This document shows, one piece after another, positions 10,636 through 14,641 of a stretch of 64,000 nt of DNA; the stretch's first letter is position 1, and each line of letters starts with the position of its first letter. The translations under genes were made by a program, and so were the position numbers. The notes beneath the pieces were generated by a model. It ran no database searches. It saw nothing but the letters and a program-made list of their open reading frames with translations, and had not been told where the DNA came from. The DNA comes from Capsulimonadales bacterium (GTDB taxonomy: Bacteria > Armatimonadota > Armatimonadia > Armatimonadales > Armatimonadaceae). Where the stretch lies: assembly GCA_033762295.1 (NCBI GenBank), contig JANRLW010000071.1, forward strand, positions 8,378 through 72,377. The letters are read 5' to 3'.

Positions 10636-11949
10636 TTAAAAACTATAATTCGTCTGCGTGTAAATCCAGGTGCTGGGGTGCGAATCCCCGCCGTTCACCG
10701 AGCGAACGAACCGTCCCGGCAGAAAGCGGGCGATCCCTCCGCTGACGGTGACCCGATCGGTGGCGCGAACGCTGCCGTATAGATCGAACTCCCGCCCTAT
10801 GTCCGTGCCTGCCGCGCCCGACGGGTCGCGTAACGCCTTCCCGGTCCGATTCCGGTTCGGCGCACCGTTATCCGCGTACCAGAAGTCGCGCGGATCGGCG
10901 AGACGGAAACGATGCCCTTCCAGCGTCACCGTCCCACGCGCATTCGGACGGATTCTCCATCGCAGACAGAGATCCGTCATGTTGCGCCAGCCCTGAACGT
11001 CCGCGATGCCGTAGAGGAAATGGTTGTTCGGGAACATCTGGTCGAACGTGCCGTAGCGTCGCGGGTTCGCCGGATCGCCGCCGGTGGCGAATGCGAATTC
11101 GCCCCATACCCGCATCGGCAGGCGACCGCCGATTTCCCTTCCGGCCTCGACGTACCCGGCGGCGGCCCGGATCTCCTTCCCCGCGTTCCGCCCGATCTGC
11201 CCCGCCAGTTCCACCGTTCCGGACCAGTCGCCGGCATGGCGCTCCGTTCGCATTCCGAACGTCCGAACGGCGACGCCGTTCCCGGAAACCCGATCGGTCT
11301 TGCTCAGGATATAGAGTTCCGACCGGTGTCGGCTGTCCGGGGAAAGGGTCGCATAGATTCCGGCGAGGTACGGGGCATTTGCCTGGTTCGCCGCCTGCCC
11401 GAGGCGTCCGGCGAAGAGATCGATCCGGCTCGTCCCTGACCGGAATCGTCCCCATCCGGCGTCGAAGGCACGTCCGCAGTAGGTCCAGCCCGAGGCCGCG
11501 ATCAGGCGTCCCCCGCCGTATTCCAGTTCCTGCCGTCCCGCCCGCCAGGCCCATCGATCGCCGAACGCCCCTTCCAGCAACGCCTGATGAAAGTCGATCG
11601 TCTCCCGACGGACGTTTCCGGTGGCCGGCAACGCGCCCGTGATCTGCCGGAAAGAAACCTGTGGCTGGAACAGGAAACCGATCCTGGTCGTGGGGGCAAC
11701 GCGTTCCGGACGCAGAGAAAGGCGGAGCCGGGAATAGGTGAAATCCGGGTCGTCACCGGAACCCGAACGATAATCGGCGAAGGTCCGGGATTCGAGCCGT
11801 GTCCACCCGTCGACCGCAACGCGAAACGATACGGGAACGGGTCGGCGGTTCGTCCGGTCCGGCAGCCTCTGAGCGGCGGACGGCAACACCGGAGCGCAAA
11901 GACAGAGCGTGAGAAGTCCGTTCCGGAGGACGGCAAGTTTCGATCCCAT
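10636..11949 (-). CDS. alginate-export-family outer membrane beta-barrel
   Basis: Signal peptide, GRQELEYG...RAFD, DIGREFD, C-terminal YSF beta-signal. Confidence 0.8.
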   Translation of the reverse strand: MGSKLAVLRNGLLTLCLCAPVLPSAAQRLPDRTNRRPVPVSFRVAVDGWTRLESRTFADYRSGSGDDPDFTYSRLRLSLRPERVAPTTRIGFLFQPQVSFRQITGALPATGNVRRETIDFHQALLEGAFGDRWAWRAGRQELEYGGGRLIAASGWTYCGRAFDAGWGRFRSGTSRIDLFAGRLGQAANQANAPYLAGIYATLSPDSRHRSELYILSKTDRVSGNGVAVRTFGMRTERHAGDWSGTVELAGQIGRNAGKEIRAAAGYVEAGREIGGRLPMRVWGEFAFATGGDPANPRRYGTFDQMFPNNHFLYGIADVQGWRNMTDLCLRWRIRPNARGTVTLEGHRFRLADPRDFWYADNGAPNRNRTGKALRDPSGAAGTDIGREFDLYGSVRATDRVTVSGGIARFLPGRFVRSVNGGDSHPSTWIYTQTNYSF

Positions 11950-12120
11950 ACCGAGTAATCCTCATTTTCGATGGTTGTCTTGCCGCGCCGGAAGCCGGAA
12001 ACCGGGGCGGAACATCGCCCCTTCCCCCTCTATCCTTTCATCGTTTGTTCCGTCGGGCATCGCCGGTTCGGCGGATTGGCAGGCGGATTGGCAGGGGTCG
12101 ATTTGCCTGAGCGAATTGCC

Positions 12121-12149
12121 TTGACACCGGGAAACGACCATGGTACACT
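12121..12149 (+). promoter_or_regulatory. sigma70-type promoter of rplJL
   Basis: TTGACA (12121-12126), 17 nt, TACACT (12144-12149) preceded by TGn. Confidence 0.85.
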
Positions 12150-12174
12150 CCACCCCGGACAACGATTTTGCGCC

Positions 12175-12300
12175 TTCCCCGTAGACAGCCGGTGCGTTTT
12201 CCGAACGCTTAAGGACCGTTGAGGTCGCCTGCCGAGGTGAGATGGCCCCGATTCGCTTTTCGACAGGACGATTCGTTCCTGCCGTGAGCGTCTGCGTATG
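12175..12300 (+). ncRNA. ribosomal protein L10 leader (autoregulatory 5' UTR)
   Basis: CCGTAGACAG...CTTAA...CCTGCCGAGG, the characteristic L10-leader core, directly upstream of rplJ. Boundaries approximate. Confidence 0.8.
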
Positions 12301-12301
12301 G

Positions 12302-12338
12302 GCCCCCGATCCTCCTAAGGGTCGGGGGCTTTTCGTTT
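12302..12338 (+). terminator. intrinsic terminator / attenuator in the L10 leader
   Basis: GCCCCCGATCC-loop-GGGTCGGGGGC followed by TTTTCGTTT, before the rplJ start. Confidence 0.75.
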
Positions 12339-12388
12339 GCGCCCCGTTCCGGCCGTCAGGTCGTGCGGGGCAAGGGAGTATCCTTATC

Positions 12389-13408
12389 ATGCCGATCGCA
12401 AAAAAAGACGCGAGCCGGAAAGCCGATGTCGTTTCGGATGTTCAGGAAAACCTTCGCGGTTCCCAGGCGGTGATACTCGCCGAGTATCGCGGCCTGACCG
12501 TGGCGCAGACCAGCGACATTCGGAAAAAATTGAAACCGAGCGGGACCAACTTCGCGGTCGTTAAGAACACTCTGTTCAAGCGCGCCGCGGAAGGTCTGAT
12601 CGACCCCGATCCCGGTCTTGATGCGAGCCTCAACGGAACGACCGCCGTCGCCTTCGCGCAGAAGGATGCCGTCGAAACGGCCAAATTGGTTCTGGAGTAT
12701 ATCGCCGCCAACCGTAACACCCCGTTCAAGGTCAAAGGGGTGGTGGTCGGACGGCGGTTCTTCCCCGGCGACCGCCTGGAAGCTCTGTCCAAAACCCCGC
12801 CGCGCGAACAGCTTCTCGCCGAGGCGCTCGGATATATCCAGGCTCCGCTCTCCGGTTTTGTCGGCGTGCTGAACGGCGTCCTTCGGGATACCGTCACCAC
12901 GCTTCAGGCTATCGTCAACGATTTCGTCTACACGCTTCAGGCCATTGTCGACAAGATGCAGGCCGAAGGAATTACAAACGAGGGTAAAACCATGGCACTC
13001 ACCAAAGAACAACTGATCGAAGGCATCGAAAATATCACGGTTCTGGAGCTGGTCGAACTGGTCAAGCAGCTTCAGGAGAAGTTCGGCGTTTCCGCGGCGG
13101 CCCCGATGCCGATGATGCCGATGGGCGGCATGCCGATGCCCGGAGCGGGCGCGGCTCCGGCCGGCGGCGCTCCGGCCGCTCCGGTCGAGGAAGAGAAGAC
13201 GACCTTTGACGTTATCCTGTCCGCGGCAGGCGACAAGAAGATCGCCGTTATCAAGGTCGTGCGCGAAATCACCGGGCTGGGTCTGAAGGAAGCCAAGGAA
13301 CTTGTCGATAGCGCGCCCAAGGCTGTCAAGGAAGGCGTCAACAAGGACGAGGCCGAAAAGTTCAAGGCCATGCTGTCCGGCGAAGGCGCCACCGTCGAAC
13401 TGAAGTAA
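12389..13408 (+). CDS. rplJ: 50S ribosomal protein L10, reading in frame without a stop into L7/L12 (339 aa fused ORF)
   Basis: [22 protein letters not shown]. No in-frame stop until 13406-13408. Confidence 0.9.
12992..13408 (+). CDS. rplL: 50S ribosomal protein L7/L12 (internal start)
   Basis: SD GAGGGT (12980-12985) 6 nt before [13 protein letters not shown]...[32 protein letters not shown]. Confidence 0.95.
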
Positions 13409-13456
13409 CCGATCTCCCTTACGGCCTGTTTCGGCAGGCTGTATTCAAACCGTCGC

Positions 13457-13484
13457 AAAGCCCGACCCTTCCCGGTCGGGCTTT
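13457..13484. terminator. bidirectional terminator between rplL and alr
   Basis: AAAGCCCGACC-CTTCCC-GGTCGGGCTTT between convergent genes. Confidence 0.75.
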
Positions 13485-13489
13485 CGTCA

Positions 13490-14641
13490 TTACGCCTCGT
13501 CACGGTAGATTCGAGCGATGTGCGCACCCGTCGCCAGACGCAACGCCGGAATCGTCGCCTCATCTCCCACCCCGATCTCCGGCAGGTCGGTTACGTCGAC
13601 CACGGTCAGTTGCATCGAAACCCGCCCCAGAACGGGCGCGGACTTGCCGCCGAATTGCACCGATAGCGTTCGCCGATACTTCCGGGCCAGCAGTTTGAAG
13701 GGGGATTGCCGCCAGATCGGCCCTTCCGGCGCGAGCGTGAATCCGTCGGCGTACCCGACCGGCAGAATCGCGGCGCGGGTCGGGCGTTTGGTCACCGCCT
13801 CTCCGCCATACCCGACGGCGGTTCCGGTTGGCAACTCCCGCACGGACACCACCCGTGCGATCAGTTCCCAGGTCTTTTGCAGGTTCAAGCTCTTCGGAAC
13901 GGACGCCGACGGATACTGACCGTAGAGCAACGTGCCGATCCGCACCATGTCGAAATGCGCCTCCGGAAACCTTAACGCCGCCGCGCTGTTGGCCGCATGC
14001 GCCCATCCGAAGGCGATCTTCTCCGCCTGAAGGTGTGCCAGCGTCTCCTTGAAGACGACCAGTTGCCGACGGCAGGCCGCCGGGTCGCTCTCGCTCGCCG
14101 TGGCGAAATGGGTGAAGATACCCGTCGGCGTCACTCCGTAGATGCCGGCCAGGGCGCGGAAAAATCCGGGGGTCGCCTCCGGCAGCAGGCCGAGACGCCC
14201 CATTCCCGTATCGACTTTTACATGGACCAGCGCCTGCTTTTCCTGTCGCCGCGCCGCCGCCGCCAGCGCCTGACACAGTTCCAGGCTATCCGCCGCGCAA
14301 ATCAGATCGTACCGTACCGCCGCCTCGGAATTCTCCGGCAAAATCGGCGCCATGACCAGAATCGGGGCATCCAAGCCGCCCTGTCGGAGGGTCAGCGCCT
14401 CATCGATCCGGGTGACGCCCAGCATATCCGCCCCCGCCGCCAGGAACGCCCGCGCCGGTTCGACATACCCATGCCCGAACCCGTTGCCCTTGACCACCGC
14501 CAGAATCCGCACCGGAGACGGCACCGTGCGGCGCACCTCGGAGAAGTTGTGACGAAGGGAAGGTAACGAAACCTCCACCCGCACGTCGGGAGTGATCGTG
14601 ATCGTATCCTCGGACTCGGAGGCAGGCAGGGAGGGAAGCAT
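13490..14641 (-). CDS. alr: alanine racemase family protein
   Basis: AVVKGNGFGHG (PLP Lys), HVKVDTGMGRLG, FTHFA, VGYG, GYADG. Confidence 0.88.
   Translation of the reverse strand: MLPSLPASESEDTITITPDVRVEVSLPSLRHNFSEVRRTVPSPVRILAVVKGNGFGHGYVEPARAFLAAGADMLGVTRIDEALTLRQGGLDAPILVMAPILPENSEAAVRYDLICAADSLELCQALAAAARRQEKQALVHVKVDTGMGRLGLLPEATPGFFRALAGIYGVTPTGIFTHFATASESDPAACRRQLVVFKETLAHLQAEKIAFGWAHAANSAAALRFPEAHFDMVRIGTLLYGQYPSASVPKSLNLQKTWELIARVVSVRELPTGTAVGYGGEAVTKRPTRAAILPVGYADGFTLAPEGPIWRQSPFKLLARKYRRTLSVQFGGKSAPVLGRVSMQLTVVDVTDLPEIGVGDEATIPALRLATGAHIARIYRDEA

Follow-up and report, generated by a model that had tools for sequence, protein, structure and literature searches.

The L12 stalk is where EF-Tu, EF-G, IF2 and RF3 land on the ribosome. 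In its canonical form, uL10(bL12)4-8, it is held together non-covalently, as a pentamer in E. coli and a heptamer in Thermus and Thermotoga (PDB 1zav/1zaw/1zax), and to our knowledge all textbook bacterial stalks are non-covalent. Unlike the canonical rplJ-rplL operon, however, the 64,000-nt stretch of DNA analysed here (the window) carries the two genes without an intergenic stop codon, so that one L12 is covalently joined to L10 via a seven-residue linker. Is this junction real, how could it have arisen, and which proteins would it yield?

The frame runs on the plus strand from an ATG at 12389 to a TAA at 13406-13408 and encodes 339 amino acids, within an open frame of 407 codons that is free of stops inside. 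It comprises, in order, uL10, the linker and a complete bL12 (Table 1). Pfam recognised Ribosomal_L10 (PF00466) at residues 9-104 (87.1 bits against a cut-off of 22.8), Ribosomal_L12_N (PF16320) at residues 205-255 (60.7 bits) and the C-terminal domain Ribosomal_L12 (PF00542) at residues 273-339 (102.9 bits), the latter two likewise above their cut-offs. L10 chains in the PDB matched the uL10 part at E 1e-20, and the bL12 part shows an N-terminal domain for dimerisation and L10 binding, a long hinge of Met, Pro, Ala and Gly, and a C-terminal factor-binding domain. The first-pass annotation had claimed that L10 runs without a stop into L12 to give 339 aa, and that the L12 ATG at 12992 keeps its own Shine-Dalgarno sequence (SD); reading frame, Pfam domains and exact coordinates agree on the first claim, and GAGGG is present at 12980-12984 as the second demands. 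An alternative start at 12242 (388 aa) was rejected because it lies inside the leader described below and because the N-termini of relatives' L10 proteins align with MPIAKKD at 12389. By exact-sequence look-up, an NCBI record carries the 138-aa L12, and the 339-aa and 388-aa ORFs are without a record.

At the junction, the codons GAC AAG ATG CAG GCC GAA(12965) GGA(12968) close uL10, ATT ACA AAC GAG GGT AAA ACC form the linker, and ATG(12992) GCA CTC ACC opens bL12. The window thereby shows the feature by which natural fusions were recognised, namely an internal L12 ATG with an SD 6-8 nt 5' of it, inside a coding linker. A TAA in the -1 frame lies at 12985-12987, 4 nt 5' of the rplL ATG, and the RNA around the linker is A-rich and unstructured (z -0.35).

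Table 1 Features of the fused rplJ-rplL locus, in coordinates of the window.
Feature	Position	Strand	Basis
Promoter-like site TTGACA, 17 nt, TG-TACACT (sigma-70-like)	12121..12149	+	10/12 consensus matches
Probable L10 leader, RF00557, core CCG.AGACAGC...GCCGAGGU	12161..12343	+	30.8 bits, below gathering score 44
Terminator-like hairpin, 14 pairs, then U-run, inside the leader match	12300-12331	+	Terminator scan
uL10 part, residues 1-194, ending ...DKMQAEG, where relatives' L10 ends	12389..12970	+	Pfam PF00466
Tandem 33-nt duplication in L10 helix alpha8, adding 11 residues to the L12-binding helix	12890..12955	+	Copy comparison
Linker ITNEGKT, 21 nt, remnant of the rplJ-rplL spacer, in-frame stop absent	12971..12991	+	Sequence
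Shine-Dalgarno GAGGG of the internal L12 start, 7 nt 5' of the ATG	12980..12984	+	Sequence
Complete bL12, 138 aa from the internal ATG (MALTKEQ...), TAA stop	12992..13408	+	Pfam PF16320 + PF00542
Two strong hairpins 3' of the stop, between rplL and the convergent alanine racemase gene	13420..13486	+	-38.3 kcal/mol, z -6.3

The fused locus is the only L10/L12 locus of its genome (G000; one match at E<=0.001 in 132 contigs, 94.5% complete). Its immediate flanks, an alginate-export-like porin gene upstream and an alanine racemase gene downstream, are on the opposite strand and unrelated to it. It adjoins neither rplK-rplA nor rpoB-rpoC, and rpoB and rpoC reside on another contig (C76), so rplJ-rplL forms a free-standing two-gene unit here. 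The neighbours between 8057 and 16526 are all on the minus strand and, besides these two, include genes for an FGGY kinase, an ornithine cyclodeaminase-like protein, a FemAB-like protein and an OMP beta-barrel.

The promoter-like site, a consensus match alone, was the only one in 11900-13600, where shuffled sequences gave a mean of 0.3. The leader match covers the full RF00557 model (1-138 of 138) with an E of 0.0021 in a 321-nt search, scores below the gathering threshold, and is probably an attenuator-type L10 leader. It lies on the right strand and ends 46 nt 5' of the rplJ ATG, a placement that suggests autoregulation of rplJ by attenuation. At the other end, the hairpins behind the rplL stop, which none of 200 shuffles folded as well, likely mark the end of the operon; a consensus terminator scan did not flag them because their T-run is short.

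Among genomes of the same family and order, 40 were searched, 38 gave a match and 29 loci were read on DNA. A stop codon follows L10 (...QAEG, ...QAEGA or similar) in all 28 readable relatives, with spacers of 30-118 nt. The check proposed in the first-pass annotation, for a conserved open frame in related genomes, thus returned the opposite for family and order, and with every readable relative split, the window fusion lacks conservation, which would be the best sign of function. L018 (in genome G032), a candidate for a second stop-less junction in the order, was rejected as a run of N, and the window holds the only true stop-less junction among the 30 loci read in family and order. Together with the single-copy status of both halves, this shows that the pattern is not due to chance. 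Its L10 is 53-61% identical to the L10s of the family, the nearest genome being only about 60% identical. As to closer kin, six peptide patterns taken from the L10 part matched 243 stretches in a metagenome scan, none of them from a relative, and the junction peptide, written as a degenerate DNA pattern, had 0 matches in a metagenome scan, although both scans may lack records that lie very close to the window.

In a maximum-likelihood tree of 67 L10+L12 rows (71 loci minus an N-masked one, a truncated one and two unparsed ones), the label fused or split changes three times: once for the families f31 and f10 together (22 rows), once for family f3 (2 rows) and once for the window by itself. The window sits inside its own family clade (support 100/100), alone among 20 split kin, which marks its fusion as an independent event on a terminal branch. 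Taken with the 28 split relatives, this lone position suggests that the fusion is either a recent, lineage-specific event or an error.

Comparison with the relatives also suggests how the stop codon may have been lost. Where the spacer of the nearest relative starts TAG AAA ATT ACA, the window reads ATT ACA, and the distance from ...QAEG to the rplL ATG is 21 nt in the window against at least 30 nt in the family. Given the relatives' ...QAEG(A)* ending, the shorter distance points to an in-frame deletion and not a substitution, and loss of the rplJ stop by a small in-frame deletion would be the simplest history. The first-pass annotation had instead placed the window a single substitution (at GAA 12965 or GGA 12968) away from the two-gene state, a proposal that the relatives do not bear out. 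Split relatives carry AGGAG, AAGGA or GGAGGG at the same distance from the ATG as the GAGGG of the window. Across the 43 parsed split loci, rplL is in frame with rplJ in 33, in a sample that is biased towards in-frame loci, and split spacers go down to 15 nt (family f15). With short in-frame spacers this common, stop loss is an easy step. In f15 itself (genus g32, L031-L037), six of seven loci are split by a 15-nt in-frame spacer (TAA GGAGGGAGTAAAACC ATG), the spacer of L032 measuring 24 nt; the f15 spacer closely resembles the GAGGGTAAAACC ATG of the window, and the 15-nt-spacer genomes are one stop-codon change short of a fusion.

The caveat first attached to this locus, that it might be a recent stop-loss or an assembly error, stands for a singleton on a terminal branch, but we regard the error as unlikely. 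It would mean that the true genome has two genes, a base having been lost from the linker or a stop miscalled in assembly or consensus. The junction is indeed a singleton beside 28 readable relatives in a 132-contig draft, one base missing in 12971-12984 puts the TAA at 12985-12987 in frame just ahead of the rplL start, in the public record only the 138-aa L12 appears to be annotated, and among the database fusions some that have Arg-rich linkers and measure 350-440 aa resemble frame errors. Yet rpoB, rpoC, valS, secA, uvrA and gyrA of the same genome are unbroken (1409, 1496, 965, 1174, 1038 and 895 codons), and with about 21 kb of these six long conserved genes showing no frame break, an indel in any particular 14 nt has a probability well below 1%. 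That the linker has 21 nt where the family has 30 nt or more points to a multi-base change and not a single miscall. Real fusions, moreover, arose at least three times among the sampled genomes of the phylum, and a diverged 33-nt duplication (both described below) shows that the same gene has really been remodelled. A search for sequencing runs that contain the stretch gave one DNA run (X1, stored as contigs, with 10% of the sequence words), two sister runs and no RNA run, and no contig from them spans 12737-13138. We infer that the assembly is right at the junction. G000 also has a second uvrA-like gene on contig C117 (matching the profile at 2-800) and a separate fragment on C28 (793-924, in a 154-codon frame), which may together be a paralogue split across contigs.

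Within a sample of 301 genomes of the phylum, stop-less full-length matches were present in 26 genomes besides the window, all 26 of them confirmed on DNA and free of N. On DNA, every genome of three families proved fused: 20/20 in f31, 4/4 in f10 and 2/2 in f3. Exact look-up found the fused proteins in clusters with 24 and 27 members, which come from NCBI, ENA, JGI and Logan and lie on many independent contigs. One member of an f31 cluster is labelled Candidatus Fervidibacteria (Fervidibacterota is a candidate phylum of its own in the NCBI ranking), the f3 members are labelled Armatimonadetes/Armatimonadota, and the fusion families f10 and f3 both carry the label Armatimonadota. Five fused genomes were checked for further L12 loci, and in all five the fused gene stands alone.

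Fusions were also found outside the phylum. A word-indexed protein search gave all three Pfam domains in 102 of the best 120 clusters (counted by hand), and several of these 120 lie on contigs of 2-4.7 Mb and bear the name Nitrospirae, Nitrospirales or Calditrichaeota. Among the best 150 matches of an exhaustive search of representatives, at least 22 were full-length fusions in a single stretch, about 297-332 aa long. Two Nitrospirota species representatives read AAA GGA GAG GGA GAG ATG at the junction on DNA. When a Nitrospirota fusion was used to scan genome contigs, it returned 80 loci from many phyla, of which 79 were parsed (L130 was not), with 2 fused (titled Nitrospirota or Nitrospiraceae) and 77 split, counts that cannot serve as a prevalence estimate because the method favours in-frame pairs. 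Natural fusions are thus much commoner in databases than the first-pass annotation assumed when it took L10 and L12 to be normally separate genes. Some database fusions are nevertheless unreal. The 350-440 aa L10...L12 'fusions' P0033, P0043, P0035 and P0102 have long Arg/Gly-rich linkers, which resemble GC-rich Ala/Glu/Pro spacers read out of frame or through; these proteins are probably artefacts or a different phenomenon. Still other proteins, of 593-1066 aa (P0122-P0124, P0127, P0137 and P0191), have 5-8 separate matches to the L12 C-terminal domain and constitute multi-CTD L12-like proteins.

Does the internal L12 start still work in such fusions? Each fused junction that was read has kept the ATG, preceded by an SD spelled out in codons: GAA CAA GGA GGG TCT CAA ATG in f31, GAT GGA GGT GCA AGC CAA ATG in f10 and GCA GAG GGA GAG GTT GAC ATG in f3. 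Across 18 f31 genes, 13 Gly columns are invariant, and in 11 of these 13 the third codon position holds three or four different bases. The remaining two, which spell the SD, are instead frozen as GGA in 18/18 and GGG in 17/18; they lie 6 nt 5' of the ATG, which is retained in 18/18. That these codons are fixed while the 11 others vary freely indicates selection on the nucleotide sequence, that is, on an internal ribosome-binding site. Since the Gly control comes from the same f31 sequences, relatedness does not explain the frozen codons, which supports internal initiation of free L12. Compared with the GGAGG found in the fixed fusions, the GAGGG of the window makes a weaker SD.

Free L12 is also what stoichiometry would ask for. 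In every bacterium studied, L10 carries 4-8 copies of L12, bound as dimers, as stated in passages of PMC1635324 and PMC12179292. Where the fused gene is the sole source of L12, this requirement points to free L12 from internal initiation, and in the window genome, which has no second rplL, a multi-copy L12 would need the internal start. Judged from its sequence, the organism of the window would hence make both the fused chain and free L12. The absence of a second rplL and the selection on the SD in fusions of sister lineages thus favour the original proposal of a fusion with a retained L12 start. Production of the fused chain alone, with no internal initiation and a single tethered L12 per stalk, strikes us as the least credible reading of the locus: the open frame, and nothing further, speaks for it, against the binding of L12 as several dimers, an SD and ATG that are intact in the window and under selection in fixed fusions, and an alpha8 helix that has become longer, not shorter.

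A recoding event could in principle restore an L10 of normal length, if ribosomes shifted by -1 in the A-rich linker and stopped at the TAA at 12985, close to the rplL ATG. We consider this very improbable, as a canonical slippery heptamer is absent before the TAA, the near-random folding of the linker region offers no stimulatory structure, and the fixed fusions of other families need no such device.

The L10 part of the fusion has itself changed. The two copies of the duplication in alpha8 are identical at 24/33 nt and 7/11 aa; it was found by eye and confirmed by comparison of the copies, Tandem Repeats Finder giving no report. It is unique to the window, as an 11-column gap occupies its place in 50/50 other aligned L10 or fusion sequences, the 1zav chain included. 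The L10 chain 1zav_A aligns with the window L10 only up to the first copy of the duplication. We take 1zav to be the Thermotoga (T. maritima) complex with three L12 dimers. An alpha8 segment of such length reportedly separates 4-, 6- and 8-copy stalks (a finding attributed to Diaconu 2005 and Davydov 2013), and the extra segment may, on these grounds, add a binding segment for an L12 dimer. For the T. maritima stalk, a heptamer is stated in a passage of PMC1635324. Being diverged, the duplication is beyond any assembler's invention and thus marks a genuine remodelling of the stalk in this lineage. The L12 part stands out as well: at 138 aa, and owing to its Met/Pro-rich hinge, it is the longest of the 68 compared, the other 67 ranging over 122-135 aa. 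This hinge (13090-13190) is unusually long and contains a 9-nt tandem repeat at 13105-13123.

An AF2 model of the whole chain (pLDDT 79) gives high confidence to the globular domain of L10 (94-97) and to the L12 C-terminal domain (83-93). In the alpha8 region it predicts helices at 139-163 and 169-192, with a pLDDT of only 55-66; the sequence aligns there with alpha8 of the relatives and of 1zav_A, making this the predicted L12-binding helix. A coil linker is predicted at 193-205 (pLDDT <50 at residues 196-202), followed by N-terminal L12 helices at 206-214 and 218-232 and a disordered hinge at 233-272. With pLDDT of 55-66 on alpha8, the whole-chain model gave no confident placement of the tethered N-terminal domain on that helix.

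A real fusion need not have a function. It might be a neutral or slightly harmful accident, tolerated as such or trimmed by a protease in the linker, and reversible, a reading that we find doubtful though by no means far-fetched. Consistent with it, the change is restricted to a terminal branch, the junction lacks evidence of conservation, the linker is predicted to be disordered, and, short in-frame spacers being common in the split state, stops would often be lost by chance. Against it, the fused state has been kept in whole families (20/20, 4/4 and 2/2) and in Nitrospirota, so fusion is at least not strongly harmful, and in the window it coincides with two other changes to the stalk, an alpha8 helix extended by 11 aa and an L12 that exceeds all others among the 68 compared.

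Overall, we consider it probable that the rplJ-rplL stop-loss fusion is real and recent and yields a uL10-bL12 chain plus free bL12. A small in-frame deletion would have removed the rplJ stop together with part of the spacer, leaving the ribosome-binding site of rplL intact. A single mRNA, starting near 12156, passing through the L10-leader attenuator and ending at the hairpins after 13408, would give rise to both products. Ribosomes that start at 12389 would make the 339-aa uL10-linker-bL12 chain, whereas initiation at the internal SD and ATG (12980/12992) would yield free 138-aa bL12 and would be several times as frequent. The uL10 part would then attach to 23S rRNA and hold free bL12 dimers on its alpha8 in the normal way, and one extra, permanently attached arm would come from the tethered bL12. 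The position of this arm is conjectural: its N-terminal domain could find a partner in a free bL12 at the final segment of alpha8, or the tethered copy could hang as an extra arm.

A bolder proposal, which we put forward only tentatively, is that the window holds a package of three stalk changes amounting to a P0-like permanent arm, and that covalent stalks of base and arm are a recurrent and selected solution. In such a package, alpha8 would have gained an 11-residue segment, perhaps with room for a fourth L12 dimer; one L12 would be tethered covalently, directly after the extra segment; and the L12 hinge would have grown into a long Met/Pro-rich tether. Were this so, the stalk would possess a permanent, non-exchangeable arm beside up to seven exchangeable ones, convergent with P0. 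Covalent stalks would then recur in slow-growing or thermophilic bacteria, by way of an SD within Gly/Glu codons, and at least two other origins in the phylum plus one in Nitrospirota would count towards this recurrence.

Compared with known systems, the window retains most of the canonical design. It has the same two proteins in the same order as the rplJ-rplL operon, an L10-leader-like element and the SD and ATG of L12; the L10 globular domain and alpha8 are present, as are the N-terminal domain, hinge and C-terminal domain of L12. With the f31, f10, f3 and Nitrospirota fusions it shares a single frame, a short Gly/Glu-rich linker and an internal ATG after a codon-written SD, and in the fixed fusions, too, the fused gene is the only L12 gene. 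Unlike these fusions, which are inherited by whole families and use a strong GGAGG, that of the window is independent, arose in an otherwise split family, and combines the linker ITNEGKT and the SD GAGGG with an alpha8 duplication absent from all of them. The window is thus a new, independent and unusually decorated instance of an architecture that is fixed in several lineages.

The closest functional parallel of the window fusion, by analogy, is archaeal and eukaryotic P0, in which the stalk base likewise ends in a flexible, permanently attached arm with a factor-binding module. The likeness is one of function and convergence, not of homology, as aP0/P0 has no more than a hinge and a terminal peptide, both from an unrelated stalk protein family, whereas the chain of the window would carry a whole bL12, dimerisation domain included. 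A passage of PMC7768734 notes that aP0 also has a C-terminal region homologous to aP1, giving seven sites.

Our literature searches returned no paper on a natural bacterial L10-L12 fusion, and the excerpts of PMC3578206 (a table of which lists rplJ and rplL separately) and PMC6375957 that they brought up were unrelated to the matter; the uL10-bL12 architecture is apparently unstudied. According to a passage of PMC12179292, the speed of translation may be tuned by the number of L12 copies, which is 4, 6 or 8. A natural covalent chain bears on whether a non-exchangeable arm is tolerated by the stalk or turned to its advantage, on how an odd tethered copy pairs with free L12, on how a product ratio of 1:5 to 1:7 is obtained from one ORF via a codon-embedded SD, and on whether autoregulation continues at the L10 leader. 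For such questions the phylum offers a natural series, from long-spacer split loci and 15-nt in-frame split loci through the fresh singleton fusion of the window to family-fixed fusions. Annotation pipelines treat fused loci inconsistently, calling either 309-313 aa 'L7/L12' or 128-138 aa L12 alone; in the f3 cluster (L045), some records give the name 'L7/L12' to the 309-aa protein, and others annotate only a 128-aa L12.
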